Assembly (NCBI GenBank): GCA_963678065.2
Contig: CAXXVZ010000004.1
Location: 256,001-320,000, forward strand
Origin: Treponemataceae bacterium
GTDB taxonomy: Bacteria > Spirochaetota > Spirochaetia > Treponematales > Rectinemataceae
Reading direction: 5' to 3'
DNA: 64,000 bases
The position numbers and the translations under genes are program-made. This document shows, one piece after another, positions 1 to 39,568 of the stretch; the first letter of the stretch is position 1, and every line of letters starts with the position of its first letter. The notes beneath the pieces are model-generated. The model was given only the letters and a program-made list of their open reading frames with translations. It did no database searches and was not told the origin of the DNA.

Positions 1-66
1 GAGCACTTTCCGCATCGCGGCGTCGTCGTCGACGACGAGAATATGGCGCTTGTCCGTTGGATCCAT
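1..66 (-). CDS. Response regulator receiver-domain protein (5' end only; runs off window)
   Basis: Manual translation of the reverse complement from ATG at 66 gives MDPTDKRHILVVDDDAAMRKVL, the classic receiver N-terminus. AAGGAC lies upstream. Divergent from a histidine kinase. Confidence 0.8.
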   Translation of the reverse strand, partial: MDPTDKRHILVVDDDAAMRKVL

Positions 67-230
67 GGTTGTCCTTGTCCGTCGATTCCGGCTTTCGGAA
101 AATCACTGTCACTTTAGTGATCGTCATCTCACACTCATAGTTTAGTATAAAAATAATCTTTGAGGTACCACCTGCCGATAATTTCATCGTGATTTGTACA
201 AATAGCCCGATACCATTGGGTTTTTACATA

Positions 231-245
231 TGGTATAGTTTCTGC
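231..245 (+). promoter_or_regulatory. Candidate promoter of the histidine kinase gene
   Basis: TGGTATAGT fits an extended -10 (TGn-TATAGT). The same stretch also fits sigma54 GG-N10-GC spacing (TGGTAT-N5-CTGC). About 40 bp upstream of the start. Confidence 0.3.
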
Positions 246-283
246 GATCCGCCTGCGAGGCGGATGGGTTCAAGGGGGATTTG

Positions 284-3200
284 ATGATTCTGGACGCAAC
301 ATCGCTGGTGCCCGCACTGTCCTTCCTCATATACATCCCATTCGCCATTTTCGGACTCTACAATCACAAAGAAAAAGTAAATATCTATTTTTTGGTCTAC
401 ATGTCTTTCATGGCCCTGTGGAGCTTCGGCTCCTTCATGATGCACGCCAATACGGGCATCTTCACGCCCCTCATCTGGAACCGCGTCATGCTGATCGGCA
501 TGCTCGGGGGGCCGATCTCGATTTTCGGGACCCTCATGGGCCTGTCGGGCGCGGAGAAGCAGCGCTACAACACCATTCTCTACATCGGTTACGCGATCTA
601 CATCATCCTCCTGTACTTCAATCTCTCCGGAGGGATTGTCTCCGACGCCGGATTCGACGCGAACGGTTTCCACTACACCCTCGGCAAGGGTTCGTTCATC
701 GCCTACTCCCTCTCCTATTTCTATCTGATACTGACTATCTTCCTCCTCACCCGCCAGCTGAAGGCGAACACGAACCGTTTCGCCCGGAAGACCCTGAGAC
801 TCGTCACCGCCGGAGCCTTCATCATGCTGGTCGGCATCGCGGTAAACCTCTACGCCCCCCTCGGCCGCTACCCCATCGACCTCTTCTCCGCCACTATCAA
901 CGCGGCCATCATCTTCTATGCCGTCTACAAGTACCGGCTCGCAAACTACTCAGCCGTCGTCCTCAACATACTTCTGATCATCTTCGTGGCCGTCCTCAGC
1001 GCGCTGGTATTCGCGGTGATATTCCTCGTCGTCTTCCATCTCGAACGCGCTATCCCCTTTCAGAACATCTTCCTGTTATCCCTCATCCTCGGATTCATCT
1101 CCTCGGTGATTCTGTCGCCGCTGCGAAACACCACTCTCATGTTTCTGGAGAAGATATACGGCGGAAAGACATTCAACTATTACAAGGGCCTGCGCGACTT
1201 TTCGGCCAGTCTCACCTCCATCGTGGACCTCGAGACTCTCGGAGACCTCACGGTGGAGAAAGTGATGTCCACCTTCAGCCTGGAATGGGCCTGCATGCTC
1301 GTCAACGATTACGGTTCGCGGAGCTACAAGATCAATATGGCCAAAAACGTCCCTTTTCGCGGCGGGACGCTGGATGGGCACGTCCAGAATGTCTCGCTGA
1401 AGCGTTCGGAAGAGCTCACCAAGGAGTTCGGCAGCCACAGCACCCAGGTGAAAGACAACATTCCCGCGCACAGGTCGAAGGGCAGCCACAAGATACTCCT
1501 CACCTCGATGGATCAGGGCGAGGAGGAGGTCGAGGTCAGTCTCATCGTGCCTCTGCGCTTCAAGGAAAGGCTAAACGGCTTCCTCATTCTCGGCCCGCGC
1601 TCCGACAAGGACTACTACAACCAGTTCGACACCGACATCCTCCAGCTTCTTTCGGACCAGTGCTCAGTGGCCCTCGAGAACGCGATCTCCTTCGAGCGCC
1701 TGCGCCAGCAGCAGAAGCGCCTGCAGTACGTGAACAACGAGCTGGTCATCAGCCGCAACAAGCTCGAGGCTTTCTTCGACGGCATCACTACCCCGATCGC
1801 GATCCAGGACATCAACTACAACATCGTCGCGGCCAACTACGCCGCGAGGCGGTACTTCGAGCTCTCGGACGACAGCCTCGTGGGCAAGAAGTGCTACAAG
1901 GTCTTCTTCGACCGGGACCGGCCCTGCAACGAGTGCATGGCCCAGGACTGTCTCCACTCCCGCCTGCCCTTCACGGCCGAGCGTCAGGACGCGAAAGGCC
2001 TCATCACCTTCGCCCTCAACTTCTACCCCATTCCCGTGCCGAAGGATTCGACGATGATCTTCCTCGAGTTCTTCCAGGACATCACGAAGCAGAAAACCCT
2101 GCAGGAAGAGCTCATCCAGTCTGAAAAGCTCGCCGGAATCGGAACTCTCGTATCCGGAATAGCCCACGAGATCAACAACCCTCTGGGCGGAATCATCGGC
2201 ACGGCGGAGCTCATGCTCCCGGAAACCGGGGAGGGCACGAGTCTCAGAGAGTATACGACGGACATCATCAAATACGCCCAGACCGCCGCCGAGGTCATAT
2301 CCGACCTCATGACCTATTCGCGCAAGACAAAGACGGGCTCCGAACCGGTCGACGTCACCGAGATACTCGAGACCTCGCTCAAGCTGGCCATGCGTGGAAT
2401 CGATTTCGGCAAGATCACGATAAAGAAGAACTACAGCCAGATCGATCCGGTTCAGGCCAACTCGACCGAGCTCCAGCAGGTTTTCCTCAACCTCATCGTG
2501 AACGCCAGCCAGGCCATGGACGGGAAAGGGAGCCTCACCCTGGAATGCCTCCAGGAAGATGGCGACATCTTCGTTTCAGTCCGGGATACGGGACACGGCA
2601 TCGACAAGAAGAATCTCGACAAGATATTCAACCCCTTCTTCACGACGAAGGAGCCGGGAGCGGGCACGGGGCTCGGTCTCAGCATCGCCCACCACATCGT
2701 GTCCAAGCTGGGCGGCCGCATTCTCATCGACAGCAAGGAGGGAGAGGGAAGCATTTTCCGCGTCATGCTCCCGGCGGCCGGAGGAGACCGCGAGCGCCTG
2801 CGCTTCATCCACGCCACCGAGAAGCGCGAAGAGGAAGATTGTTTCTTCATCCAGCGAAAAGTTCTGGTCGGCGAGAAGGGTTACCAGGAAGAGACGATCA
2901 GGAGGAAGGAAGACGAGAGAGCCTTCCACGTCTCGGCCTACAAGGGCATGCAGCCGGTCGGTACGGTGACCCTCATCACGAAAAACATGGCGGGACACGT
3001 TCCGATAGAGGAGAATTTCGACATCAGTACCTGGCTCGACGACTCCAACTACGCGGAGATCGATCGCCTCGCTGTCATGAAGGAAGACAGGGGAGGTATC
3101 GTTCCCTTGAGCCTCATGACCCTCGCCTACCTCTACGCGCGAGCGGAAGGGGCGCGCAAGATCTTCCTCGATGTGTTCTCCGACGAGACGAAACTCATAA

Positions 3201-3451
3201 AGATGTACGAAAAACTCGGTTTCCAGACCATCGGGAACTACAGCGCGCCCCTGCCCTGCACGGTCATGATGATGGACCACCAGTCAGAGTACGAGAGCAA
3301 GGCGACGCGCATGGAACACTTCGTCAAGCCATTTTTCTCCCGCCTTCAGCCGAGGATCGATTTCCGGGGCCACGACAGGGAGATGGTTCAATCGGTGATC
3401 AACAGGATCTCGCGCAATTTTGCCAGGGAAACAGAGGGCGAACAGGAATGA
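284..3451 (+). CDS. Membrane sensor histidine kinase (multi-TM, GAF, PAS, HisKA, HATPase) with C-terminal GNAT/acyltransferase-like domain
   Basis: Hydrophobic N-terminus with many TM helices. GAF-like segment ([18 protein letters not shown]). H-box [11 protein letters not shown]-box [11 protein letters not shown]1 DTGHGI, F/G2 [15 protein letters not shown]-terminal [26 protein letters not shown]. Confidence 0.9.
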
Positions 3452-3607: not shown

Positions 3608-3650
3608 CCCCGTAGCGCGCTGCGGGGTATGAAACCCGCCTGCGAATCAG
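3608..3650 (-). repeat. Short hairpin repeat (REP/MITE-like), copy 1, most complete
   Basis: Minus strand reads cTGAttcgcaggcgggtttcataccccgcagcgcgctacgggg. It overlaps the corrinoid-protein stop codon and contains a hairpin CCCCGTAGC-GC-GCTGCGGGG. Confidence 0.75.
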
Positions 3651-4282
3651 GCTGCGGCAAAAATGGATGCGACGACTTCGGCCGCGCTCGCGGCATCGGC
3701 CGTATAATAATCGGCTCCGATGGACTGACGGTAGGAGTCGGTGACGGGGGCTCCTCCGATCATGATCTTGATGCTGCCGCGGATCCCGGCTTCATCGGCC
3801 TTCTGGATTATGTTCTTCATCTCGGGCATGGTCGTGGTGAGGAGTGCCGAGCACATGATGATGGACGCGCCCTGCTCTTTCGCGGAGGTGATGAACCTGT
3901 CCGCCGGAACATCGGTGCCGAGATCCACGACCTCGACGCCGCGGCCTTCGACCATCATCCGGACGAGGTTCTTGCCGATGTCGTGGAGGTCGCCCTTGAC
4001 CGTGCCGATGACGACCTTGCCCTTGGCCTTGACACCCTCGGAGACGAGGAAGGGTTTGAGGATGGCCATTCCGCCGTTCATGGCGCGCGCGGCGATGAGG
4101 ACTTCGGGAACGAAGACCTCATTCTTCTTGAACTTCCCGCCGATGACCGTCATGCCGTTCATGAGGGCGTCGAGAATCTCGCCCGCGCCGATCTTTGCGT
4201 CGAGGGCGGACTGGACTCTTTCCTTGGTTTCCTTCAGCTTGCCAGCCTGCAGGAATGTGGAAATCTCTTCGAGTACGGACAT
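3647..4282 (-). CDS. Corrinoid (cobalamin-binding) methyl-carrier protein, MtbC/MttC/MtaC-like
   Basis: Cap domain (EVFVPEVLIAARAM) and B12-binding motif GDLHDIGKN...SALLTTT...IGGAP; 211 aa. Confidence 0.95.
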   Translation of the reverse strand: MSVLEEISTFLQAGKLKETKERVQSALDAKIGAGEILDALMNGMTVIGGKFKKNEVFVPEVLIAARAMNGGMAILKPFLVSEGVKAKGKVVIGTVKGDLHDIGKNLVRMMVEGRGVEVVDLGTDVPADRFITSAKEQGASIIMCSALLTTTMPEMKNIIQKADEAGIRGSIKIMIGGAPVTDSYRQSIGADYYTADAASAAEVVASIFAAA

Positions 4283-4462
4283 GATTGCCTCCCAAATGAC
4301 CTTTCTGACGTTCTTCCGGAGGATGCTTCTGGCAGCATCTCTTTTTTCTTAATAATAATAAATGCGCATTTTCCGGCTGTCTCTCATTTTTTTATGAATT
4401 GCGACAGTCCTATCGTAAAATATTCGTATACCGCGGATTAAAGCCAAAGTATCATCGTGACC

Positions 4463-6325
4463 ATGGAACACCGAATTTCCGGCCTGCGCGGAGAGAAGCT
4501 TTTCGAAGCCCTCGTCAAAGCCGGCCTTCCCCTGGAATCGCCCTGCGGAGGCGCGGGAACCTGCGGGAAGTGCCGCGTCCGCGTCCTGTCCTCTGACCTC
4601 GATGAGCCTGCCGGCAGCTCCGCTTTCGCGGGCGGAGCCGATCCTTCGCAGGAAGCAAAGACCATCTGGACGGAGAGGCTCTCCTGCAAGACCCGCTTTG
4701 TCCGGGACGGCTTCGCCCTCGTCGACGTGGAGGAGAAGGCCATGCGCATCGTCGACCGCTTCGAGCTGCCCATGCCGGAGGGCGCCGCCGCGCTCAAGGT
4801 CTTCGATGTCATCCTGCCCGAGCCCCGGCTCGAAAACTCAGGGTCGGAGCTCGCGCGCCTGGAAGAAGCGACAGGCATCCAGGCGGGATCCTCCCTCGAG
4901 CTGCCGAGGGCGCTGGCCCAGGCATTGGCCAGGACAGGGACCGCGGAGCCCGGCGCCGCCGATACCGCCGCGCGGGAGCTCCGTCTCATCCTGCAGGAAG
5001 GGGGCCGGCTCTCCCTCGCTGGCGGCAAGGATGTTCCGGCCCTCGCCGCCGCCGTCGATATAGGGACGACGACAGTCGCCGTCCGCCTCCTTAACGCCGG
5101 AACGGGAGAGGCCATCGCCTCGGGAGCCCAGGCCAATGTCCAGAAATGGGCGGGGGCCGATGTCATCTCCAGGATTGGCACCTGTGCCTCCCCGGAAGCC
5201 TTTTCGCGTCTGTCCTCCGGCATCGCGGCCCAGATCGGCAAGATGATTCTCTCCCTCGCCGCAGGAGCGGGAAGAGCGGCTTCCGCGGTGAAGCGCATCG
5301 TCATCGCCGGCAACCCCACGATGCTCCACATCCTCGCCGGTGTGTATCCCGCGGGCATAGCGCGCGCGCCCTTCGTCCCCGTCTTCACGGGGGCCTTCGA
5401 CCTCGCGCCCGCAGACTCGCCGCTCGGCGGACTCTTCGGCGGAGACTGCCGGACCATCCTCGTCCCGGGCATCTCGGCCTACGTCGGCGCGGACCTCGTC
5501 GCGGGGGCTCTCGCCTGCGGACTCGGCCAGGGGCCATCGGAGAAGGAGCCCGCCCTCCTTCTCGACCTCGGCACGAACGGCGAGATCATGCTCTTCACGC
5601 GGGCCGGATCTTTGTGCACATCGGCCGCCGCGGGGCCGGCCTTCGAAGGCGCCTCGATCGAGTTCGGCCTACCATCCATCCCAGGCGCGATAGACCATGT
5701 GCGGCTCGAAAACGGCGGAATCGCGACGACCGTGATCGGCTCGGGCGCAGCGACGGGCATCTGCGGCTCGGGAATCCTCGACGCCGTCGCCGCCCTTCTG
5801 GACTGCGGGGCAGTGGACGAGACGGGCAGGATAGATCCGGATGGCGCTGCCGCAGCCGGAGCGGCCGGAGATCATGCCCATCTTGGCCCGGAGTGGCTCA
5901 CGGAATACAAGGGCAAGCCGGCCGTCATCCTCGACCGTACATCGCGAATTCTCATAACCCAGAACGATCTGCGACAGGTTCAGCTCGCCAAGGCGGCCGT
6001 CGCCGCGGGCGTGGATATCCTCCTCGCCCAGGCCGGACTGACGGCCCGCGAAGTGAGGACCGTCTACCTCGCGGGCGGATTCGGTTCCCGCCTGGACGCC
6101 CATTCGGCCCTGAGGATAGGATTGCTCCACAGGGACTTTGCCGGACGCATCGAGGCGGTGGGCAATTCTTCCCTGGCCGGCGCGGAAATCGTCGCCCTCC
6201 GCGGAAATGCCCTTGAAACCTGCTCCCGCATCGCGCGGGAATGCCGCGCGATCGAACTTTCGGGACGACTCGACTTCGTTTCCGCTTTCTCCGAAGCCAT
6301 GTTCTTTCCCGAATCCGAATACTGA
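4463..6325 (+). CDS. Corrinoid reductive activator (RACo/RamA-like ASKHA ATPase with N-terminal 2Fe-2S ferredoxin)
   Basis: CGGAGTCGKC...RLSC ferredoxin; DIGTTT, GADVISRI, DLGTNGE, AAGPAFEG, GICGSG, AGGFG and GNSSL motifs. Confidence 0.92.
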   Translation: MEHRISGLRGEKLFEALVKAGLPLESPCGGAGTCGKCRVRVLSSDLDEPAGSSAFAGGADPSQEAKTIWTERLSCKTRFVRDGFALVDVEEKAMRIVDRFELPMPEGAAALKVFDVILPEPRLENSGSELARLEEATGIQAGSSLELPRALAQALARTGTAEPGAADTAARELRLILQEGGRLSLAGGKDVPALAAAVDIGTTTVAVRLLNAGTGEAIASGAQANVQKWAGADVISRIGTCASPEAFSRLSSGIAAQIGKMILSLAAGAGRAASAVKRIVIAGNPTMLHILAGVYPAGIARAPFVPVFTGAFDLAPADSPLGGLFGGDCRTILVPGISAYVGADLVAGALACGLGQGPSEKEPALLLDLGTNGEIMLFTRAGSLCTSAAAGPAFEGASIEFGLPSIPGAIDHVRLENGGIATTVIGSGAATGICGSGILDAVAALLDCGAVDETGRIDPDGAAAAGAAGDHAHLGPEWLTEYKGKPAVILDRTSRILITQNDLRQVQLAKAAVAAGVDILLAQAGLTAREVRTVYLAGGFGSRLDAHSALRIGLLHRDFAGRIEAVGNSSLAGAEIVALRGNALETCSRIARECRAIELSGRLDFVSAFSEAMFFPESEY

Positions 6326-6353
6326 ACCGCGATGAGATGAAAGGAGATTGCCG

Positions 6354-7721
6354 GTGAATCACGAGTCCTTCGCCCCGGACGGACTGTCCGCCGATCCCGC
6401 TCCGAACGAAACCGCAGCTCTCCTGGAAAAGACCGCCCGGACGTATGCCCTGGCGACAAACACACCCTGCCACGCCGTCGACCCCGACGGACGTTTTTTC
6501 GGCTCCGACTCGAAATCCATACGCTGCGGGCTCTGCATGGCGACTGGCCCCTCAGGCTGCGACGACGAGCGCCCCTCCTCATCCTGCGACGAGGTCCTGC
6601 GCTACGGAATTCTTCAGGCGGAACGATTCGGCGGCGCCTATCTCTCTTTCTGCCCGAACAGCCTTCTCATTACCACGGCCGTCGTGCGCAAGGAGGCCGA
6701 AATCGTGGGCGCCCTCATCGCGGGCCCCGCCCTCCTCGTCGACAAGGACGAGCTCATCAGCGAGGAATTCGCGCGGATACACGGAGAGCTCGCCCCGGGA
6801 ATGCCGGGCCTCATGGACCGGCTCGCGACCATGCCGAGCCTCGACACTCTGCGGGCCAAGGCCCTCGCGGACATGCTCGAGGCGGCGGCCAGGGACGCGG
6901 GCGCGGAGCTCGAAGGCCGGGTCGATCCCAGGATCGAGGCCTCGCGCCGGAACGCGCGGATAGCCGAGTACATCCAGAGCCTCAAGGCGGCGGGCCTCGA
7001 CTCCGGCGACGGGGAGGAGAATCTGCGCGGCTATCCCTTCGAGAAAGAGAGGGAACTGGTCGCCTTGGTCGCGCGGGGAGACAAGGCCGGAGCGCGGAAG
7101 GTTCTGAACGAAATTCTCGGCGCGGTGTTTTTCGAGGGAGGAGGCGCCCTGCAGGGCGTTCGAGCGAGGGCTCTCGAACTCGTCGTCCTCCTGTCGCGCG
7201 CCGCGGTGGAAGGAGGGGCGACGGCCCAGGAAGTATTCGGGGCGAGCGAGGACTTCATCAAGCGCACGGCGACGGCGCGGAGCGTCGAGGATCTCGCCTC
7301 CTGGCTCGCCGTCGTGCTCAACCGCTTCACCGACTTCGTCTTCACCCTGAAGAGGGCGAAGCACGCGGACACCATCCGCAAGGCGGAACGCTTCATCAAG
7401 GAGCGCTACCGCGAGGAACTCACGCTGGAGGATGTCGCGAAGGAAGTCGGGCTTTCGCCCTCGTACTTCAGCTCGGTCTTCAAGAACGAAGTCGGGACGG
7501 GCTTCGCCGCCTACCTGAACGAGGTCAGGATCTTCAAGTCGAAGGAGCTGCTCAAGAACCGGGCCATCCCCATCGTCGAGGCGGCGGGCATGGTCGGCTT
7601 CCTCGACCAGAGCTATTTCAGCCGGGTCTTCAAGTCGATAGTCGGGGTGTCGCCGGGCGCCTACCGGAACGGGCGCTTCGCCCCCGACTCCGGGATAGAG
7701 ATACACGGAGAGAACGCATGA
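6354..7721 (+). CDS. AraC-family regulator with PocR ligand-binding domain
   Basis: N-terminal Cys-containing PocR-like sensor (CxxC..C..FCPNSL), YPFEKERELV linker, C-terminal AraC HTH (LSPSYFSSVFK...GFLDQSYFSRVFK). AAGGAG RBS before GTG at 6354. Confidence 0.88.
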   Translation: MNHESFAPDGLSADPAPNETAALLEKTARTYALATNTPCHAVDPDGRFFGSDSKSIRCGLCMATGPSGCDDERPSSSCDEVLRYGILQAERFGGAYLSFCPNSLLITTAVVRKEAEIVGALIAGPALLVDKDELISEEFARIHGELAPGMPGLMDRLATMPSLDTLRAKALADMLEAAARDAGAELEGRVDPRIEASRRNARIAEYIQSLKAAGLDSGDGEENLRGYPFEKERELVALVARGDKAGARKVLNEILGAVFFEGGGALQGVRARALELVVLLSRAAVEGGATAQEVFGASEDFIKRTATARSVEDLASWLAVVLNRFTDFVFTLKRAKHADTIRKAERFIKERYREELTLEDVAKEVGLSPSYFSSVFKNEVGTGFAAYLNEVRIFKSKELLKNRAIPIVEAAGMVGFLDQSYFSRVFKSIVGVSPGAYRNGRFAPDSGIEIHGENA

Positions 7722-8842
7722 GACTGCACATCGTCGGAGGTTTCCTCGGCTCGGGCAAGACGACTGCCATCGCGCGGGCCGCGAAACTTCTGGCCGGGCG
7801 CGGACTGAAGGTCGGAGTCGTCACGAACGACCAGGGCAAGAGCCTCGTCGACACAATCTTCATGGACTCTGCGGGCGCGCCGAGGACGGAGGTGACGGGC
7901 GGATGCTTTTGCTGTCGCTACGAAGATTTCACGGACAGACTCGCCGCCTTCGCCGCAGAGGAGAGGCCCGACTGGATCTTCGCGGAGGCCGTGGGCTCCT
8001 GCGCCGACGTCGTCGCCACCGTCGTGCTGCCCATCGCGCAGGCCATCAGGGGAGCGAGCTTCGGGGCGCTGGGATTCACGGGCGCACCGACTTTTTCCGT
8101 GCTCTGCGACTCCCGCCTGCTGCAGCGCAGGCTCCTCGGCCAGCCCCTGCCCTTCTCGGAGGACCTCACATACCTCTTCGACAAGCAGATCGCCGAGGCT
8201 GGCCTCATCGTCGCGAACAAGTCCGACCTCGTCGCCGACAACCAGGCCTTCCGCACCCTCTTCGAGGAGAAGTTCCCTGGAAGGCCCTGGCGCATGCAGT
8301 CCGCGAAGTCCGACGCGGACATCCTGGGCTGGACGACCGCGCTGGATCAGGCGGGCGCGGAACTCGCCGGCAGGCCCGAGGAGGTCGACTACGAGCGCTA
8401 CGGGCGCGCCGAGGCCGGGCTCGCCTGGGCGGACTCGGAGATCCTCCTCGAATCCGCGCCGGAAAATCCGGGAGTCGAGCTCGGGGCGGCCTTCCGCAGC
8501 CTCTTTCTCGCCCTCGTGGCGCGGGTGAAGAAGGAAATCGGCCCGGCCGGCCACGCGAAGGCCTTCGCGGGCGACGCTCGCGCCGGCGGGAAAATCAGCA
8601 TCGTCTCCGCGGGGACCGACGAAGGCATCAGGATGGAATTGCCCGAGTTCCACGACTCTCTGCCTGTCCTCCTCAACCTCAGGATCGAGGGATCGCCAGA
8701 GCGGCTGGAAGCCGTCATGCGGGCAGGACTCGCGGAGCTCGGCGCAAAGCTCGGGATCGCCGTCACCATCCGCTCGATGAGTGTCTTCAGCCCCTCGCCT
8801 CCCCTGGTGCCGGCGCAGAGGGTCGGGCAAACAAAGGCGTGA
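7718..8842 (+). CDS. CobW/HypB/UreG (G3E) family GTPase metallochaperone
   Basis: GGFLGSGKTT Walker A, GGCFCC metal motif, NKSD guanine motif; ATGA overlap with the upstream regulator. Confidence 0.88.
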   Translation: MRLHIVGGFLGSGKTTAIARAAKLLAGRGLKVGVVTNDQGKSLVDTIFMDSAGAPRTEVTGGCFCCRYEDFTDRLAAFAAEERPDWIFAEAVGSCADVVATVVLPIAQAIRGASFGALGFTGAPTFSVLCDSRLLQRRLLGQPLPFSEDLTYLFDKQIAEAGLIVANKSDLVADNQAFRTLFEEKFPGRPWRMQSAKSDADILGWTTALDQAGAELAGRPEEVDYERYGRAEAGLAWADSEILLESAPENPGVELGAAFRSLFLALVARVKKEIGPAGHAKAFAGDARAGGKISIVSAGTDEGIRMELPEFHDSLPVLLNLRIEGSPERLEAVMRAGLAELGAKLGIAVTIRSMSVFSPSPPLVPAQRVGQTKA

Positions 8843-27580: not shown

Positions 27581-29085
27581 CACCTGCCCCCTTCGCCGTT
27601 GGCCGCGAGCAGAACCGATTCCTCGGAGCACTCTTCGTACTTCATCTCGCGGGTGAACCTTCCGTTGCACATGATCATGACCCTGTCGGAGAGGCCGACG
27701 AGTTCGGGCAGATCCGAAGAGATGAGGATGACCGAGGTTCCGGCCCGCGCGAGCTTTTCGATCGACTGGTGGATGATCATCTTGGCGCCGATGTCGACGC
27801 CGCGGGTCGGTTCGTCCAGAATGAGAACCTTGGGTGAACTCGCGAGCCACTTCGCGAGGAGTACCTTCTGCTGGTTGCCGCCCGAGAGGTTGCCGACGGT
27901 CCGCGAAGGATCGGGCGGGTAGATGGCGAGTTCCTTTATGAGCGAGTCGACCGTGGTCCCACCCGCGCGCTTCGAGTAGACGGAGAATTTCGAGAGGCGG
28001 TGGATAATGGGCGAAAGAATGTTGTCGTCGACGGCGAGCCTGAGGGCGAGCCCTTCGACCTTGCGGTCCTCGGTAAGGTAGGCGATGCCCTCGTCGACGC
28101 GCGAGGCCATCGAGCGGCCTTTTACCCGCTTTCCATCCAGCTCGACCGCGCCTTCGTCGGCCCGGTCGAGGCCGACGAGTACGCGGGCCAGCTCCGAGCG
28201 GCCGGCTCCCGACAGGCCGCAGATACCCATGATTTCGCCGCGCCTGACCTCGAAGCTGACATCGTGGAAGAAGCCGTAGCGCGTCAGCTTCGCGACCTTG
28301 AAGCGGGATGGACCGATGGCGCGCTTGTCGCGGTTGTAGAATTCCTTGACAGAGCGGCCGACCATCATCTGGACGATCTCTTCCCGCGTGACTTCGACGA
28401 TCTCCTTCGTGGCTACCTTCTTTCCGTCGCGCATCACCGTGACGCGGTCGGCTATCCTGAAGATCTCCGGAAGATGGTGCGAAATGAAAACGATGGCGAG
28501 ACCCCGCTTCCTGAGAGTGTCGATGATTCCGAATAACCTCTCGACTTCCTCGCGGGAGAGCGCGCTCGTGGGTTCGTCCATGACGAGAATGCAGGGTTTC
28601 GTTCCGAGGACCTTCGCGATTTCGACGAGCTGGGCCTCGTGCTGGCTGATGTCCTCTATGGGAAGTCCCGGGTCGAGTTCGAGGCCGACCGAAGCGAGGA
28701 GACGTCTGGCCTCGGCATCGGCGGCCGCGCGGTCGAGAAGCCCGCGTTTTTTCGGAAGCCTGCCTGCGAGAAGATTCTCAGTGATGCTGATGGGCCTCGC
28801 GAGACTCAGCTCCTGGTAGATCATTCCGATGCCGTATTTTCGGGCCTCGGAGGGAGAGTGCAGGAGAACCTTCTTGTCGTTGATGAAGATGTCTCCGGTG
28901 TAGTCGTCGAATGATCCGGCGAGCATCTTCATGAGGGTCGATTTGCCCGCCCCGTTTTCCCCGACGAGGGCGTGCACTTCGCCCGCGTAAACCTGGAAGG
29001 TGACGTTGTCGACGGCTATCGTTCCCGGATAGCGTTTGCCGACTCCTTTCATCTCCAGCGCGACCCCTATCTCGTGTTCGCTCAC
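27580..29085 (-). CDS. Sugar ABC transporter ATP-binding protein (RbsA-like, two ABC domains)
   Basis: GENGAGKSTL, LVMDEPT, LSGGNQQKV, ILDEPTRGVDIG; GTG at 29085 overlaps the upstream TGA. Confidence 0.95.
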   Translation of the reverse strand: MSEHEIGVALEMKGVGKRYPGTIAVDNVTFQVYAGEVHALVGENGAGKSTLMKMLAGSFDDYTGDIFINDKKVLLHSPSEARKYGIGMIYQELSLARPISITENLLAGRLPKKRGLLDRAAADAEARRLLASVGLELDPGLPIEDISQHEAQLVEIAKVLGTKPCILVMDEPTSALSREEVERLFGIIDTLRKRGLAIVFISHHLPEIFRIADRVTVMRDGKKVATKEIVEVTREEIVQMMVGRSVKEFYNRDKRAIGPSRFKVAKLTRYGFFHDVSFEVRRGEIMGICGLSGAGRSELARVLVGLDRADEGAVELDGKRVKGRSMASRVDEGIAYLTEDRKVEGLALRLAVDDNILSPIIHRLSKFSVYSKRAGGTTVDSLIKELAIYPPDPSRTVGNLSGGNQQKVLLAKWLASSPKVLILDEPTRGVDIGAKMIIHQSIEKLARAGTSVILISSDLPELVGLSDRVMIMCNGRFTREMKYEECSEESVLLAANGEGGR

Positions 29086-30329
29086 TTCGCGCTCCCGTTG
29101 AATTGTGCGATCGCATCGTACATCGCGATGATGTTGGCGGGCGGGACATCGGGCAGGATGTTGTGGACCGTGTTGAACACGAATCCGCCGCCGGCCGAGA
29201 ATATTTCGAGCCTGCGCTTCACCTGCTCCGCGACCTGCGCGGGTGAGCCTGAATTGAGCACCTCGCGCGTGTCGACGCCGCCGCCCCAGAAACAGATATC
29301 TTTCCCGAATTCTTTTTTGAGTTTTTCCGGCCCCATGTCCTTCGCGTTCGTCTGGACCGGATTGAGAATGTCGTAGCCCACATCGATGAGGTCGGGCATG
29401 AGGCTGTAGAGCGATCCGCATGAATGAAGGAAGGTCTTCATGGAGCTGTGCTTCTTCACGTAGGCCACGAGTTCGGCGTGACGGGGCTTGAAGAGGCTCC
29501 GGTAGGTATCCGGGTTCATGAAGGGCCCCCCGTCGTGGCCGAGATCGTCCCCGAAGCGGATGATGTCGGCCACGTCGCCGACGGCCTCGCAGACCTTCTC
29601 CAGAGTCGCGAGGTGGCTCTCCATGAGGGCGTCCAGAAGCCGACCGACCTCTTCGGGCTCGCACAGGAGGTCCATGAGGAAATTGTCGATGCGCCGGAGG
29701 AAGGTCCCCCACTCGAAGAGGTTGCAGCCGGCGACGATCACGAGGGCGCGGTCGGACTTCGCCTTGAGCGCGAGCGCACGGGCGCGGAGATCCGCCCAGA
29801 AGTCATCGGCGGCGGCGTGATTCCAGGGCGAGTGCACGAGGGCGGACCAGAGAACCGCGCCCATCGCCTCTGGCAGGCCGGAATACTCGGCGGGATAGCC
29901 TTCCAGGTATGGAAAGCAGCGCTGGTCGTAGAAGGTCGCGCCCGCAGGCCGCTCGGCGATGAGCCGGCCAGAGCGATCGCAGGCGTAGAAGGAATCGCCG
30001 CGCCGCACCGGCTTGAACCAGGCCGGGTACTGCACCTTCCAGCCGCCGGGAAGCTCGATGTCGCTCCAGTCCGAGGGACTTTCGTCGAAGGCGCGCCCTA
30101 TGTCGACCACATCCACGCCGAAGCGGCCTAAGGCCCAGTCGTCGGGCTGGGCGAGTTCCTGCACGACGTCGTAGACTTTCACGGGCAGGTCGGAGTGTCC
30201 CAACTCGGCCGCGAGGCGCGAATAGGCGATCGCCGAGATGCCGGAGCTCGGCGTGGCTCCGAGGTCGACCGGAACTTTGTCCGGCTCCCGGTGCTCCACG
30301 GCCGAGAGGATGCGTTCGCGGGAAGTCAT
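29082..30329 (-). CDS. Uroporphyrinogen decarboxylase-fold (MtaA/CmuA-like) corrinoid methyltransferase
   Basis: MTSRERI..EPDKVPVDLG, FGDDLG, HSCG, LNPVQ, FWGGGVDT, FVFNTVHNI. Confidence 0.85.
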   Translation of the reverse strand: MTSRERILSAVEHREPDKVPVDLGATPSSGISAIAYSRLAAELGHSDLPVKVYDVVQELAQPDDWALGRFGVDVVDIGRAFDESPSDWSDIELPGGWKVQYPAWFKPVRRGDSFYACDRSGRLIAERPAGATFYDQRCFPYLEGYPAEYSGLPEAMGAVLWSALVHSPWNHAAADDFWADLRARALALKAKSDRALVIVAGCNLFEWGTFLRRIDNFLMDLLCEPEEVGRLLDALMESHLATLEKVCEAVGDVADIIRFGDDLGHDGGPFMNPDTYRSLFKPRHAELVAYVKKHSSMKTFLHSCGSLYSLMPDLIDVGYDILNPVQTNAKDMGPEKLKKEFGKDICFWGGGVDTREVLNSGSPAQVAEQVKRRLEIFSAGGGFVFNTVHNILPDVPPANIIAMYDAIAQFNGSAK

Positions 30330-31612
30330 CAGGCTTTGCCCACCTGGCCGGCATCGACGACATCACCGGCGGCGCCCGATGCATCGCCGGACGGACCGCC
30401 CGCGGCGAAGGCCCCGCGCCCGGCCGATTTTCCGGCGCGGAACAGGTCCATCTCGGGCATGTCGTACTCGCCGAGCTCGAGAGGATATTTTCCGTATTTC
30501 TTCACGAGATCGACGACGAAGCCGTAGCGCTCGGCCGAGACATTGCTCGGCACCGAGTGGTCGGACTGCACGATGTAGCCGCCGCCCTTGGCCGCGTTGA
30601 GCTTTCGCATAACCTGGGCTTTCAGCTCGTCCAGGGAGGCGTTCGCCCAGGCGAGAGCGTCGATATTGCCGCAGAAACCCATCTCGTGGCCGTACTGCTT
30701 GCGGATTTCGACGACATCGAGGCCGGACTTGGCCTCCAGGGGATTGTAGGCGTCGAGGCCTATCTCGATGAAATCGTCGTAGATCATAGTCGCGTTGCCG
30801 CAGCCGTGGTAGATGACGGGGATGCCTGCATCGTGGCAGACTCTGATCTGCTCCTTCACGATGGGCTTGAAATGCTCGCGCCAGAATACCGGCGAAAAGA
30901 GCATGCCGTTGCGGTAGGCCACGTCGCCCCAGATGACCATGCCGTCGAGCATGCCGTCCGCGGCCTTTATCTGGGCCTTCGTCATCTCGGCGAGGAAGCT
31001 GCCGACCCTCTCTATGAAGGCGCCCAGCTCATCGGGATACAGGCCCATCCACATGAAGGTGTTCTCGCTGCCGATGATGCGCCAGAGCTGCTCGTGACCC
31101 TCGCAGATCGAGCCGTAGACGGGGAAATCGGGATGAATGCTCTTGACGGTGTCGATCCAGGCGGGGGAATTGCGGGTGATGACGTCGCCCACGCCGGCGA
31201 GCTGGTTGTCGCCGGCACAGAAGTAGCGCCTGTCGTCCCAGGGATCGTCGAACTGGAAGGCCTCCATCTTCTCGATCGAGTCCGTGCCGAAGGACTCGAA
31301 GTAGGGCATCTGCGTGCCGAGCTTCTTGCGGATGACGGCCTCGTACCCGGTCCTGAGGATGATGTCGTCCTCGTGCTCGGAGAGGATTTCGAAGGGTTTG
31401 ATGTGCGGGTCCATGTTCGGGGTCGTGGATACCCAGTCGAGGTCGTAGTAGCGGTAGACGTCCACGTCGTCCGCGAGCCCGAGCTCCTTTCTCCATCGCT
31501 GGATGAAGGTCGTCCAGAAAAAATCGCTCACGGGAACCCTGTCCGCCTCTTCGTGGCGCAGGGTCGCGTTCATCCTTTCGAGCTTCTGCAGGCACTTCTC
31601 GGTTCTCTTCAT
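30329..31612 (-). CDS. Uroporphyrinogen decarboxylase-fold methyltransferase-like protein
   Basis: EADRVP, WGDVAY, YHGCGN, YNPLEAK, GNID, GGYIVQSDHSVP. Confidence 0.85.
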   Translation of the reverse strand: MKRTEKCLQKLERMNATLRHEEADRVPVSDFFWTTFIQRWRKELGLADDVDVYRYYDLDWVSTTPNMDPHIKPFEILSEHEDDIILRTGYEAVIRKKLGTQMPYFESFGTDSIEKMEAFQFDDPWDDRRYFCAGDNQLAGVGDVITRNSPAWIDTVKSIHPDFPVYGSICEGHEQLWRIIGSENTFMWMGLYPDELGAFIERVGSFLAEMTKAQIKAADGMLDGMVIWGDVAYRNGMLFSPVFWREHFKPIVKEQIRVCHDAGIPVIYHGCGNATMIYDDFIEIGLDAYNPLEAKSGLDVVEIRKQYGHEMGFCGNIDALAWANASLDELKAQVMRKLNAAKGGGYIVQSDHSVPSNVSAERYGFVVDLVKKYGKYPLELGEYDMPEMDLFRAGKSAGRGAFAAGGPSGDASGAAGDVVDAGQVGKA

Positions 31613-34794: not shown

Positions 34795-35379
34795 ATGCTC
34801 ACTCTGACGATGACGGCGGGCGGACTCGCGGGCTTTGTCCTCATGTTCGCCTTCGACTGGATGACGACGAACAAGACAGGCAGATCGAGGGGGTTCGTCG
34901 GCCTCGCGGGCCTGTCTCTCCTCGTCGCGTCGACGCTCGCCCTCCTCGCGGTCACCGTCGACGCGCAGAGAATGCTGTCGGCGCCGGGAATCGCCTTCAC
35001 GACCCTCGGCCTGGCCTTCTTCGGACTGCTCGCCTACTCTCTCTTCTTCGAGCTGCCGAAGGAAACCTACGCGGGAGAGGACCCGCGCCACCTCGTCGTC
35101 GATACGGGGACATGGGCCCTGTGCAGGCATCCGGGTCTTCTCTGGTTCGCGCTGGGTTACGCCTCTCTCGCTCTCGCGGCGAGGTCTTTCCCCTTCTCGG
35201 TCGCGGCCATCGTCTGGACTGTCGCCGACATCGTGTATGTCATCCTTCAGGAGCGGTTCTTTTTCCGGAAAATCTTCGCCGACTACGAGCGCTACGCCGC
35301 GACTACGCCGATGCTCATCCCGAACCGGGCGAGCGTCGAAAAATGCCTCGCCACGATCGGGAGGAAGTCCCGCCCATGA
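34795..35379 (+). CDS. Integral membrane SAM-dependent methyltransferase (ICMT/PEMT family)
   Basis: Several TM helices; LVVDTGTWALCRHPG and QE..F...YERY..TTPMLIP family motifs. Confidence 0.75.
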   Translation: MLTLTMTAGGLAGFVLMFAFDWMTTNKTGRSRGFVGLAGLSLLVASTLALLAVTVDAQRMLSAPGIAFTTLGLAFFGLLAYSLFFELPKETYAGEDPRHLVVDTGTWALCRHPGLLWFALGYASLALAARSFPFSVAAIVWTVADIVYVILQERFFFRKIFADYERYAATTPMLIPNRASVEKCLATIGRKSRP

Positions 35380-35413: not shown

Positions 35414-36178
35414 TTACACCTCCGGGCGCAGGGTCAGGACTCTGTCGTTGTCGTATGCCGGATCGATCACGTAGCCGGGCGGCACATGGAGAAATTCATT
35501 TTCGTCGACGCCGCCTGCGAGGAGGGCCCCGAGGAGGCGCATCGATCCGGGGATGAGGACAAACTCCTTTCCTTCGTCCGCCGCCCTCTGCCGCATCTCG
35601 TCCGCGTGTCCGAGTCCCGAGGTTTCGGGGATTTCGATGTAGCGGAGCTCGGTTTCGTGGAGTTCCGGATGGAGGGTCTCCCACACGTAGGCCGCGTTCT
35701 CCTCTCCGTATTTTTCGACGAGTTCGGCGTACTCGAGGCCTATACCCGTCGTCTGCCCGAGGATAGAGCTCCGGAGATAGGTGGAACCGCGCTCGATGTA
35801 GCCTGAGGAGGTCCAGGAGGCGCTGGGATTGTCCCCGAAGCGGGCGAGGAACTCGGTCTTCGAGCCGAGAAGGACGGTGCAGCAATCGTGGGCGCGCGGG
35901 ATGATGAGGGGGATCTTCCGGGCCGCGATGCCGGAAAGGCCATTGCCGCAGAGCCCGTAACCGAGGAGGATGGCGTCGTAGCCCCTCCCCCCCCGAAGCG
36001 CACCTTCTCCACCGGAGGCGGCGTCGATCCGCGCCTGGAGTGCTTCGCGCAGAGTCGAGGGACTCTCGTGGAGTCCGAGTTCCAGAAACTCGGGATCGAC
36101 GATGGCGTGCGTGCGGGACAAAAGTATACACAGTTCACGCTGGAATACGTTGCAGGCTATGAGTTTGTATTTTTTCAT
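35414..36178 (-). CDS. DUF1638-domain protein
   Basis: LIACNVF..LELGLHESP..YDAILLGYGLCGNG..PRAHDCCTVLLGS..YGEENA motifs. Confidence 0.88.
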   Translation of the reverse strand: MKKYKLIACNVFQRELCILLSRTHAIVDPEFLELGLHESPSTLREALQARIDAASGGEGALRGGRGYDAILLGYGLCGNGLSGIAARKIPLIIPRAHDCCTVLLGSKTEFLARFGDNPSASWTSSGYIERGSTYLRSSILGQTTGIGLEYAELVEKYGEENAAYVWETLHPELHETELRYIEIPETSGLGHADEMRQRAADEGKEFVLIPGSMRLLGALLAGGVDENEFLHVPPGYVIDPAYDNDRVLTLRPEV

Positions 36179-38202: not shown

Positions 38203-39568
38203 AGAACACCTCCTGGGAAAACATTGTATGAATTGAGGCATTTTCAATAGTACTATCGAGGGAATGCCTCATATCTGCGACAGGAATGATTGTAAATCCA
38301 TGTCTCTGAATAAGCAATGAATTTTTATCCAAATTGAGAAAAACCGATGCTCTTTCAAAGATCTTGCGATGGATGAATTTTCATGAAAAGCGGGGTCAGA
38401 CGTATACGGGGGCAGGTCCAATTTTCAATAAATCCACTTCAGACTGACTTTTGAAAGTCCCTCTGGTAAAAACTGATTAAAAAACGGAAACTATGTAAAG
38501 AAGACTATTCTGATCTTCGGCATACAGCGAGGTGAGAGCGATGCGAAAAACACTGCGCGTTTTGAATGTAGAGGATTCGGAAGACGATGCGTTTCTGTTG
38601 AGGTGCGCTCTAGAGAAAGGTGGCTATGAATTGGAATTTGAGCGGGTTGAGACTGCGGACGCAATGCAGTCAGCTCTATATAAAAGGCATTGGGACTTGA
38701 TAATATCCGATTATAGACTTCCAATGTTTAGTGGACCTGCAGCCCTTGCCCTCTTGAAAGAAACATCAATGGACCTTCCCTTCATCATCGTCTCAGGGGC
38801 GATCGGGGAAGAGACAGCGGTCGCGGCAATGAAAGCTGGCGCTCATGACTACATCATGAAGGGTCATCTTCAACGCCTTATCCCGGCTATAGAAAGGGAA
38901 CTCCAAGAGGCGATAGTCAGAGAAGAACGCAGGAAAGCCCAAGAGGAACTCAAGGCTAACAAAACCCAACTGTCCAACGCTCTGGAAATAGCCCACCTTG
39001 GCCACTGGGAATATGACATTTCCAGCGACATTTTTTTATTCAACGAGCAATTCTATAAACTTTTCCGGACTACCATTGAGAAAATTGGCGGATATATCAT
39101 GAGTTCTGCGGAATATATCAGTAGATTGGTTTATCCAGAAGATGCCGCAATCGTCAGAAGAGAGATCCAGAAAGCTATCCAAACCACCGATCCTGAATAT
39201 GGCCAACAGGTCGAGCATCGTATCCTCTACATAGACGGGACAGTTGGTTATATAACTATGCGCTTATTCATCGTCAAGGACGCTCAATGCAAGACAATCA
39301 AGATAACCGGAGTGAACCAAGACATCACAGAACGGAAAAAAGCGGAAATGGCTCTTCGAAAGAGCGAGGAGAAATATCACTCACTTTTCGATAGTTCCAT
39401 AGATGCTATCCTGCTGACCCAAATCGATGGCTCCATTCTCGATGCCAATCCTTCTGCCTGCAAACTGTTCGGAAGAACGCTGGAAGAGATAAAAAAAATC
39501 CGAAACGTTGATCTTGTAGATACAACCAATCCGCTTTTTCATTCCACCTTTGAAAAGAATGAACTTTT

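Follow-up and report, generated by a model that had tools for sequence, protein, structure and literature searches.

In Xanthomonas, the Rpf/DSF system consists of the sensor kinase RpfC, the REC-HD-GYP regulator RpfG and the synthase RpfF, which binds RpfC, while LuxM and LuxN follow the logic of an AHL synthase with a membrane kinase as receptor. In every quorum-sensing system known to us, the synthase is a different protein from the receptor. Most N-acyl amino acid synthases that are known come from metagenomic clones; FeeM is reportedly encoded beside its own carrier protein. To our knowledge, the products of these synthases have no known bacterial receptor and the HisKA_7TM sensor kinases no known ligand. 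PMC4897644 describes three conserved sequence motifs for N-acyl amino acid synthases and presents Nas343 and Nas354 as N-acyltyrosine synthases with a C-terminal PilZ domain; FeeL is named in PMC11685415.

Here we describe a gene of an environmental spirochaete in which a synthase-type domain and a HisKA_7TM kinase are present in one protein, an arrangement shared by about a hundred spirochaete species; elsewhere, neighbouring genes encode the two. Such a fused synthase and kinase gives a concrete, testable proposal for both the missing receptor and the missing ligand. Our literature search brought up no publication in which a kinase is fused to a GNAT or FeeM domain.

Domain order, gene pairing and integrity of the fusion

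In the window, i.e. the whole stretch of 64,000 nucleotides that was analysed, positions 284..3451 of the + strand form a single open frame of 1055/1056 amino acids with its stop at 3449-3451. The ATG at 284, preceded by a GGGGGA ribosome-binding stretch, is more likely to be the start than the alternative TTG at 281. The ATG form is the 1055-residue database copy P0002, and residues are numbered here according to the 1056-residue TTG form, P0001. Open frame and Pfam together give the domain order HisKA_7TM, GAF, PAS, HisKA, HATPase_c and then a FeeM-type GNAT domain, all on the + strand. The HisKA_7TM membrane sensor module (residues 13-222; 317..946; 50.8 bits, cut-off 28.6) is followed by two more hydrophobic stretches, recognised in the sequence, up to residue ~290, and by a GAF-like region (residues ~316-467; 1226..1681) of which the GAF_2 and GAF_3 scores (24.9 and 21.2 bits) lie below cut-off in the window protein and above cut-off in relatives. 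The PAS domain recognised by Pfam (residues 493-605; 1757..2095) contains a Cys/His cluster in which C538, C549 and C552 are invariant in the family alignment and H559 is kept in at least 90%.

The HisKA (DHp) domain (residues 622-683; 2144..2329; 45.5 bits) carries the phospho-acceptor H629 (nt 2165-2167) within AHEINNPL and precedes the HATPase_c ATP-binding domain (residues 728-832; 2462..2776; 85.3 bits). H629, N741, D769, G771, G773, G797 and G799 are all invariant in 40/40. With its H-box histidine and complete ATP-binding domain, the kinase part is assigned by sequence to the HisKA class. According to the preliminary description, about 220 residues follow the HATPase domain in the same frame, at the place where hybrid kinases usually carry a receiver domain. 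This was confirmed: Pfam finds no Response_reg domain in the protein at E<=1, and HATPase_c is followed by the FeeM/GNAT domain, whose first strand (residue 838, nt 2792) agrees with the domain start originally placed at 2790.

The response regulator presumed to be encoded divergently is indeed there, with only its first 22 codons inside the window (1..66, - strand) and the remainder upstream of it (L004 10996-12066 = G000:C4:254996-256066). This protein of 356 aa combines REC (Response_reg, 107 bits) with HD-GYP (HD_5, 125.7 bits) and possesses LLDIRMP with the acceptor Asp, HDIGK and GYP; it is a predicted c-di-GMP phosphodiesterase. The pairing is conserved, as a REC + HD-GYP gene lies divergently upstream in 57 of the 60 related loci whose flank extends over at least 1300 nt. 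An ICMT-like membrane-protein gene accompanies the kinase/regulator pair in 55/80 loci, and in most related loci it sits between the two. It is absent from the window locus, where the gene positions leave a divergent intergenic region of ~215 nt (67..283) that is too short for one, and no acyl carrier protein or fatty-acid gene adjoins the kinase-GNAT gene in the window.

ATP-binding (CA) and GNAT domains are separated by a linker of five residues (2777..2791, + strand) without stop or frame change, too short to accommodate a stop codon together with a start codon and ribosome site between kinase and GNAT. The concern that a stop had been lost at about 2780-2800 was addressed with Logan contigs from four runs of four studies, one of which may come from the window's own source; these cross the junction (nt 2477-3449) with 0 insertions or deletions, excluding an assembly error. 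In two strain variants of the gene the listed substitutions are synonymous in 9/9 and 8/10 cases, the non-synonymous pair in the second being L757I and TGA>TAA, by which the stop is kept. In the RNA runs X19 and X20, only 0.12-0.15 of the words were present.

That homologues would carry the fusion as well, rather than two genes, was likewise borne out. A single closed frame of at least 1000 aa is present in 63 of the 80 related loci at species level, and 12 more run into a contig end; frame changes occur in L067 and L089, and an insertion element interrupts L101. When the C-terminal 217 aa were used to search proteins of 580-1848 aa, all 100 proteins found carried PF21926 together with PF02518. 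A split form, with a methyltransferase, a free FeeM-like GNAT and a 7TM-GAF kinase joined by stop/start overlap, was seen at one metagenome locus (L106), the single usable one of 8 from the metagenome scan. A few relatives of the domain are fused to REC (4 clusters) or to PilZ (P0125). A word-based search for short relatives returned chiefly fragments of the fused family, and one family of 293 aa. One carrier of the fusion, Rectinema subterraneum SURF-ANA1 (locus L031), is in culture.

Fold, family and putative active-site residues of the C-terminal domain

The FeeM-type GNAT domain spans residues 838-1010 (2792..3310, + strand) according to Pfam, AF2, Foldseek and profile alignment, and is followed in the AF2 model and the alignment by a C-terminal helical tail (residues 1011-1056; 3311..3448, + strand), which is weakly conserved (mean identity 0.37). 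All motifs that had led to its recognition are present, namely VGTVTLI (893-899), PIEENFDI (908-915) and AEIDRLAV (925-932), and further RGG (937-939), AYLYAR (949-954) and MYEKLGF (975-981). In the whole protein, the FeeM family PF21926 matches residues 875-986 with 38.6 bits (cut-off 27), and with the last 220 aa alone the match rises to 42.2 bits (E 8.9e-11); Acetyltransf_1 reaches 34-38 bits (cut-off 20.7). PF21926 also exceeds its cut-off in 8/8 related kinases scanned (31.9-50.2 bits), and the kinase-GNAT protein is its one match in the whole genome.

The AF2 model of the domain (pLDDT 86.3) retrieves at least 500 PDB GNAT chains with Foldseek at E<=1e-3 and gives VIA-align Z scores of 15-19 to 50 GNAT entries, so that its modelled fold places the domain in the GNAT superfamily, as had been expected. 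The three top structural matches, FeeM (2g0b, Z 19.2, 165 aligned), SACOL1063 (19.1, 140 aligned) and YjcF (18.9, 137 aligned), form a tie, and NatC, RimI and Ard1 also match (Z 16-18). In sequence searches, a profile that includes the nearest free-standing relatives (A3) reaches the FeeM chain at 5.6e-8, while FeeM was not reached at E<=1 in a PDB search with a profile of the fused family alone (A2). The best solved relatives by sequence are SACOL1063 (1.5e-15) and YjcF (1.9e-10), ahead of FeeM; because of this and the structural tie, FeeM-type chemistry is not proven. A profile of alignment A1 gave dominant kinase matches in the PDB and was uninformative on the GNAT part, and the protein Atlas, queried with the homologue P0028, yielded only GNAT clusters of a generic kind, of which two had FeeM on 24-33% of their members.

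The proposed likeness to FeeM is upheld by the Pfam match above cut-off, the Z score of 19.2 and the profile alignment. Two other affinities named in the preliminary description did not hold up: PF00765 (Autoind_synth) is not matched at E<=10, leaving for LuxI a weak profile match to BjaI (3.6e-5), and the exosortase-associated acyltransferase model is absent from the 15 NCBIfam matches at E<=10.

For FeeM, the residues Glu95, His145 and Phe148 are quoted second-hand. In the profile alignment, the glutamate of its LAEV motif (the published Glu95, one off in the chain numbering) falls on E926 (nt 3056-3058), a putative catalytic residue that is invariant in 40/40 and across the 18 rows of A3. 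According to PMC4897644, Nas354 requires its equivalent Glu103 for N-acyltyrosine production. The same alignment finds G-L-P-x-D/E and A-E-x-x-x-A common to the GNAT domain and FeeM, and P908 (nt 3002-3004), in the insert between strands 3 and 4, is again invariant (40/40). Free-standing relatives of ~190 aa, which lack any kinase, likewise possess this catalytic-type glutamate and a GLP-like insert.

The P-loop, R937-P942 (nt 3089-3106), reads R-G-G-I-V-P and is non-canonical. The canonical CoA pyrophosphate loop Q/R-x-x-G-x-G/A is found in 0/38 family members, none of which shows the G of position 4 or the G/A of position 6, and it is missing from the free-standing relatives too. P-loop changes of this kind mark carrier-protein-dependent GNATs such as SbzI and FeeM, as stated in PMC11685415. 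The loop has kept its canonical length in the kinase-GNAT protein, while the FeeM region is 8 residues longer in the profile alignment, so that acyl-CoA might also be used. On the conserved catalytic glutamate and the non-canonical P-loop we favour, without regarding the matter as settled, a predicted active acyl-carrier-type N-acyltransferase over an acetyl-CoA protein acetylase. At the level of sequence, the GNAT part is conserved to the same degree as the kinase core (mean identity 0.56 with 26/175 columns invariant, compared to 0.55 with 18/145 for the CA domain).

Proposed function and alternative readings

Our best explanation, which we advance tentatively, is a predicted active N-acyltransferase coupled, in one conserved polypeptide, to a kinase controlling c-di-GMP. 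The GNAT domain would likely acylate an amino acid or similar amine with a fatty acyl group, the probable donor being acyl-ACP. Phosphorylation of the divergently encoded REC + HD-GYP regulator would likely be carried out by the kinase, and this phosphotransfer would alter c-di-GMP. The five-residue tether to the ATP-binding domain might render kinase state and acyltransferase activity interdependent; a complex prediction of the kinase core (596-835) with the GNAT part (836-1056), each supplied with alignment A4, scored 0.00, which bears neither way on docking. The product could serve as a structural aminolipid or as a signal, diffusible or membrane-borne, that the 7TM module of the same protein senses, and the arrangement offers a possible route tying c-di-GMP to a lipid-derived molecule in free-living spirochaetes. 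The existence of a cultured carrier makes the proposal testable at the bench.

An extension of this proposal, which we hold to be rather unlikely, makes one protein both maker and receptor of a lipid signal in a self-contained autoinduction circuit. An N-acyl amino acid would be made by the FeeM-type domain and, in most relatives, modified by the ICMT-like membrane enzyme, perhaps to a methyl ester; the product would enter the membrane and be sensed by the 7TM module, upon which the kinase would switch the HD-GYP regulator and reset c-di-GMP. The split cassette of methyltransferase, GNAT and 7TM kinase might then be the ancestor or a sister form. Such a circuit, if true, would be of a kind not described.

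It is also doubtful that the GNAT domain serves as an input or regulatory module rather than as a productive enzyme. In that role it would bind acyl-ACP, acyl-CoA or an amino acid and thereby bias the adjacent ATP-binding domain, so that the kinase would receive a second input, from the cytoplasm, as a read-out of lipid or nitrogen metabolism. A tether of just five residues would suit this role in a protein that already stacks several sensor modules (7TM, GAF, PAS with its Cys cluster), and a CoA-gripping P-loop altered in 38/38 members is as expected on loss of turnover; however, the same altered P-loop is reported for active carrier-protein-dependent GNATs (PMC11685415). An input module also does not account well for a catalytic-type glutamate and GLP-like insert that are invariant in 40/40 and kept by the short free-standing relatives, which have no kinase to regulate.

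We consider it quite improbable that the domain acts on proteins as an acyl- or acetyltransferase and, by modifying a lysine in either the partner regulator or the kinase, supplies the phosphorelay with a second covalent mark. The GNAT is tethered to the CA domain, beside which the regulator docks, the N-terminal and lysine acetyltransferases NatC, RimI and Ard1 are among the structural matches, and for response regulators acetylated by a neighbouring GNAT a precedent exists in P. gingivalis, where Pat is co-transcribed with RprY (PMC5706477). Against this, the acetyl-CoA P-loop is non-canonical in 38/38, RimI scores 25 bits only with a cut-off of 86, at the family level FeeM, rather than a protein acetylase, matches best, and the nearest relatives either stand alone or are joined to REC or PilZ, with no obvious protein substrate. 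Finally, an assembly or annotation artefact, in which a stop between separate kinase and GNAT genes was lost, finds no support beyond a few broken related loci (L067, L089, L101) and is ruled out by the contigs from four studies and the 63/80 closed frames, besides the lack of space in the linker.

Comparison with described systems

Returning to the predicted N-acyltransferase coupled to a kinase, its closest described counterparts include FeeM (2G0B) and the other type I long-chain N-acyl amino acid synthases (PF21926). FeeM has the same GNAT fold, the extra insert and the first C-terminal helix (Z 19.2, 165/184 residues), its insert motif GLP-x-acidic and active-site glutamate align, and the P-loop is non-canonical in both, although identity to the GNAT domain is only 18%. 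FeeM is a free-standing enzyme, whereas the present domain forms the C-terminal end of a membrane histidine kinase. SACOL1063 (5JPH) and YjcF (1Q2Y) are the top sequence matches among solved structures, mainly over helices 1-2 and R-K-V-F-V-x-E-x-G. Together with ElaA (5Z6N; VIA-align Z 16.5) they are small free-standing GNATs of unknown or weak amino-acid acetylating activity which, unlike the kinase-GNAT protein, possess a canonical R-G-x-G-x-G P-loop and lack the ~19-residue insert between strands 3 and 4 and the C-terminal helix. LuxI-type synthases (BjaI, 5W8C) belong to the same superfamily and have E-x-x-R-L-A on strand 4, yet differ in the Autoind_synth family, which the GNAT domain does not match.

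Nas343 and Nas354, likened here by description and not by sequence, resemble the fusion in that a FeeM-type synthase is covalently tied to a signalling domain from the c-di-GMP network; PilZ and FeeM are also combined in the relative P0125. In these proteins the enzyme comes first and a small-molecule receptor domain second; here a complete sensor kinase precedes the enzyme and the c-di-GMP link is the partner HD-GYP regulator. In overall layout the locus recalls Rpf/DSF, with a multi-pass membrane kinase, a REC + HD-GYP regulator and a physically coupled fatty-acyl enzyme. RpfF, however, is of the crotonase family and bound to RpfC non-covalently, whereas the GNAT is fused in cis, and RpfC is of the hybrid type, with REC and HPt domains that are absent from the present kinase. 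With the regulator in common, and the crotonase synthase and hybrid kinase not, Rpf/DSF serves as an analogy for this locus rather than as the system to which it would belong.

Domain layout and the fold of the C-terminal domain

The kinase-GNAT gene occupies 281..3451 of the window (+) as a single open frame of 1056 codons, with its likely start at the ATG at 284, where a GGGGGA stretch lies just 5'; the database copy of the protein (P0002) has 1055 aa, and residue numbers used here follow the TTG form (P0001). Pfam identified HisKA_7TM at residues 13-222 (50.8 bits), a weak GAF at 316-467, PAS at 493-605, HisKA at 622-683 (45.5 bits), HATPase_c at 728-832 (85.3 bits) and FeeM (PF21926) at 875-986 (38.6 bits against a cut-off of 27), the latter overlapping Acetyltransf_1 (34.4 bits on the whole protein), and found no receiver domain. 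With the last 220 aa alone, FeeM reached 42.2 bits (E 8.9e-11) and Acetyltransf_1 38.3 bits, and Autoind_synth gave no match at E<=10. By Pfam's own criterion the C-terminal domain is a member of the FeeM family. NCBIfam returned weak generic GNAT matches alone, with RimI on top (25 bits against a cut-off of 86). A preliminary description had read 2790..3451 as a GNAT/N-acyl-synthase-like domain following a sensor histidine kinase, and all motifs that it quoted were found in the protein where it had placed them.

The PAS domain contains a Cys/His cluster (window 1892-1957, residues 538-559), of which C538, C549 and C552 are invariant in 40/40 proteins, H559 is kept in at least 90% and C557 in the majority. 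Its residues could coordinate a metal or an iron-sulfur cluster, so that the kinase could sense redox or oxygen; four-cysteine PAS sensors, e.g. NreB, offer an analogy.

An AF2 model of residues 817-1056, built with 38 sequences (pLDDT 86.3, pTM 0.81), shows a GNAT fold, followed by two additional helices. Foldseek ranked YjcF (E 8.8e-10), FeeM (1.3e-9) and SACOL1063 (4.8e-9) as its top three, and VIA-align gave tied Z scores for FeeM (19.2; 165 aligned, rmsd 2.4), SACOL1063 (19.1; 140) and YjcF (18.9; 137), although the FeeM match also takes in the insert and the first of the two added helices. A sequence profile of the fused family alone, compared with solved chains, found SACOL1063 at 3.7e-10 and did not reach FeeM; once free-standing relatives were included, it matched BjaI at 3.6e-5 and, more strongly, the chain of FeeM at 5.6e-8. 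The domain is rare, as a full HMMER search against 1.84 billion representatives returned only 85 proteins at E<=1e-3. Outside the fused family, the nearest relatives stand alone, with lengths of about 190-200 aa and 27-35% identity, and 22 of the 27 relatives scanned pass the FeeM cut-off. Common to the relatives are the insert (G-L-P-I-E-like, with P908 invariant), an A-E-x-x-x-L-A strand and a C-terminal Y-E-K helix.

In the profile with free-standing relatives E926, which is invariant in the fused proteins (40/40), aligns with the glutamate of FeeM's LAEV. For FeeM, Glu95 is described as the proposed active-site residue, and changing the equivalent Glu103 of Nas354 to Ala abolished activity (PMC4897644). 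The domain thus keeps the one residue shown to matter, and its chemistry is a prediction. The GNAT part is conserved to the same degree as the kinase core, with a mean pairwise identity of 0.56 and 26/175 invariant columns compared to 0.55 and 18/145 for the CA domain. The CoA pyrophosphate loop reads R-G-G-I-V-P, and the canonical Q/R-x-x-G-x-G/A P-loop occurs in 0/38 family members; such changes are described as characteristic of carrier-protein-dependent GNATs, e.g. SbzI and FeeM (PMC11685415). Joined to the ATP-binding domain by a five-residue tether, the fused domain would transfer a fatty acyl group to the nitrogen of an amino acid or amine, and because of the P-loop the donor would probably be acyl-ACP. 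That the domain is instead a non-catalytic ligand sensor seems unlikely to us. We give still less weight to a protein acyltransferase with the regulator or the kinase as its substrate, for which the Pat/RprY pair of P. gingivalis is described as a precedent (PMC5706477) and against which the P-loop speaks, as it disfavours acetyl-CoA use.

Integrity and spread of the fusion

The fusion of kinase and GNAT is real, since related loci carry it in closed frames and contigs of several studies bridge the junction; an assembly artefact can practically be dismissed. Logan contigs from four runs of four studies, one possibly the window's own source, span nt 2477-3449 without indel, and among the listed substitutions in two variant contigs 9/9 and 8/10 are synonymous, the other two changes in the second being L757I and TGA>TAA, which keeps the stop. 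The last 217 aa, searched against proteins of 580-1848 aa, matched 100 proteins at E<=1e-3 from 390 candidates, and each of them (100/100) contains both PF21926 and PF02518. Almost all have lengths of 1000-1100 aa, the most distant is 41% identical, and their names point to Spirochaetota MAGs.

A locus survey with one genome per species (185,579 species) gave 98 stretches encoding a relative, of which 80 were kept. A single closed frame of at least 1000 aa is present in 63/80, and 12/80 run off the contig. Among the remaining five, L067 and L089 have frame breaks, L080 has a frame of 385 aa, and in L101 (830-3304) an ISL3-like transposase gene stands in the kinase's place, leaving a 213-aa GNAT remnant. 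The fifth, L037 (5267-7816), encodes an 850-aa variant with REC, HisKA, HATPase and FeeM; its core is 65% identical to the window's kinase-GNAT, its receiver-like stretch is 40% identical to the REC of the partner regulator (tblastn), another kinase-like stretch precedes, and the MAG's label, Solidesulfovibrio, may be a binning error. Within the phylum, 10/301 sampled genomes (9/126 genera), the window's own included, carry the family, as do 10 of 18 other genomes of the window's own family and none of 12 from other families of the same order. A cultured carrier is Rectinema subterraneum SURF-ANA1 (L031).

Genomic neighbourhood

Upstream on the opposite strand, in a gene inside which the window begins, a 356-aa REC + HD-GYP regulator is encoded (Response_reg 107 bits, HD_5 125.7 bits) with intact acceptor, HD and GYP motifs and a start-to-start gap to the kinase of about 215 nt. 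Among the related loci, 60 extend 1300 nt or more beyond the kinase on its upstream side, and 57 of these have the same regulator on the opposite strand; it is absent at that place in L033, L055 and L059, and ExbB/ExbD genes replace it in L033 and L059, the two exceptions scanned.

Between kinase and regulator, 55/80 loci (drawn from L023-L102) have a gene for an ICMT-like multi-pass protein of 180-215 aa with an R-H-P-G-F motif, of which every match to Pfam ICMT, PEMT and DUF1295 stays below cut-off. Its AF2 model (pLDDT 93.9) is closest to sterol reductase, Ma-ICMT, ICMT and SRD5A (Z 11.8, 10.5, 9.9 and 8.9), with the next rows at Z 7.8 or lower and Foldseek E values of 0.07-0.15 only. The protein likely belongs to the ICMT/sterol-reductase superfamily, an assignment that is not secure for a helical protein. 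The window's locus has no such gene; in this genome the best match, 27% identical, is a paralogue in an unrelated setting (34795-35379, +; PEMT 20.4 bits, under the cut-off of 25). Particular to the window is the module in its minimal form, which comprises the regulator and the kinase-GNAT gene and lacks the ICMT-like one.

The further surroundings, a PALP enzyme, an AraC regulator and cytochrome bd upstream and a corrinoid protein with its activator downstream, are unrelated. Corrinoid-dependent methyltransferase gene sets lie at 3647-8842 and 29085-31612. The former has, by names from reading the translations, a B12-binding protein (3647-4282, -), a long ferredoxin/ATPase-like activator (4457-6325), an AraC regulator and a CobW-like GTPase; the latter has two URO-D-like methyltransferase genes and is listed with a DUF1638 gene (35417-36178). 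A REC-PAS gene (38532-39590) is followed by a DDE transposase gene (39606-40799).

Proposed mechanism and related systems

We propose a normal HisKA kinase whose state would be governed by the membrane and cytoplasmic sensor modules; by phosphorylating its REC + HD-GYP partner it would alter c-di-GMP breakdown. Since enzyme and kinase are part of one chain and one dimer, the state of each likely affects the activity of the other. The whole scheme, from kinase through regulator to c-di-GMP, with a fatty N-acyltransferase as fused domain and the two activities interdependent, is tentative, with chances slightly short of even. The boldest reading, in which the product is also the ligand of the same protein's 7TM module in a one-protein autoinduction loop, is unlikely. 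Of the preliminary description the observation, a kinase-GNAT fusion, stands, and the interpretation is borne out in part.

Relatives include REC-FeeM proteins (P0114 and three further clusters) and a PilZ-FeeM protein (P0125). For the receiver of the REC-FeeM proteins, the closest family consists of proteins of about 534 aa in which a receiver is joined to a beta-ketoacyl-ACP synthase II (P0238-P0256, P0350), one of them named Candidatus Omnitrophota; they are response regulators, and a fatty-acid synthesis enzyme would be their output. A split form occurs in one metagenome locus, L106 (2-12025), where genes for a SAM methyltransferase, a free GNAT (28% identical to the window's domain, E 3e-22) and a HisKA_7TM-GAF kinase run in one direction, the stop and start of the last two overlapping. 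The sensor half of this kinase aligns with residues 8-477 of the window's kinase (21% identity, E 4e-13). Two more HisKA_7TM kinases and a NAD_binding_4 reductase are divergent from the split cassette, and fatty-acid genes (FabF, FabK-like, FabG) adjoin it.

Members carry the NCBI and JGI labels 'GNAT family N-acetyltransferase' or 'histidine kinase', and our literature searches found no paper on a kinase-FeeM fusion. HisKA kinase, HD-GYP regulator and FeeM-type synthase, the parts of the system, are each of a known kind. In function Rpf/DSF is the nearest analogue, where a membrane kinase acts together with an HD-GYP regulator and a kinase-binding fatty-acid signal synthase; there the synthase is a crotonase that attaches non-covalently, and the kinase, RpfC, is a hybrid. 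In architecture the nearest precedent is NAS-PilZ, enzymes described as producing N-acyltyrosine in an account that also mentions a cAMP-activated NAS (PMC4897644).
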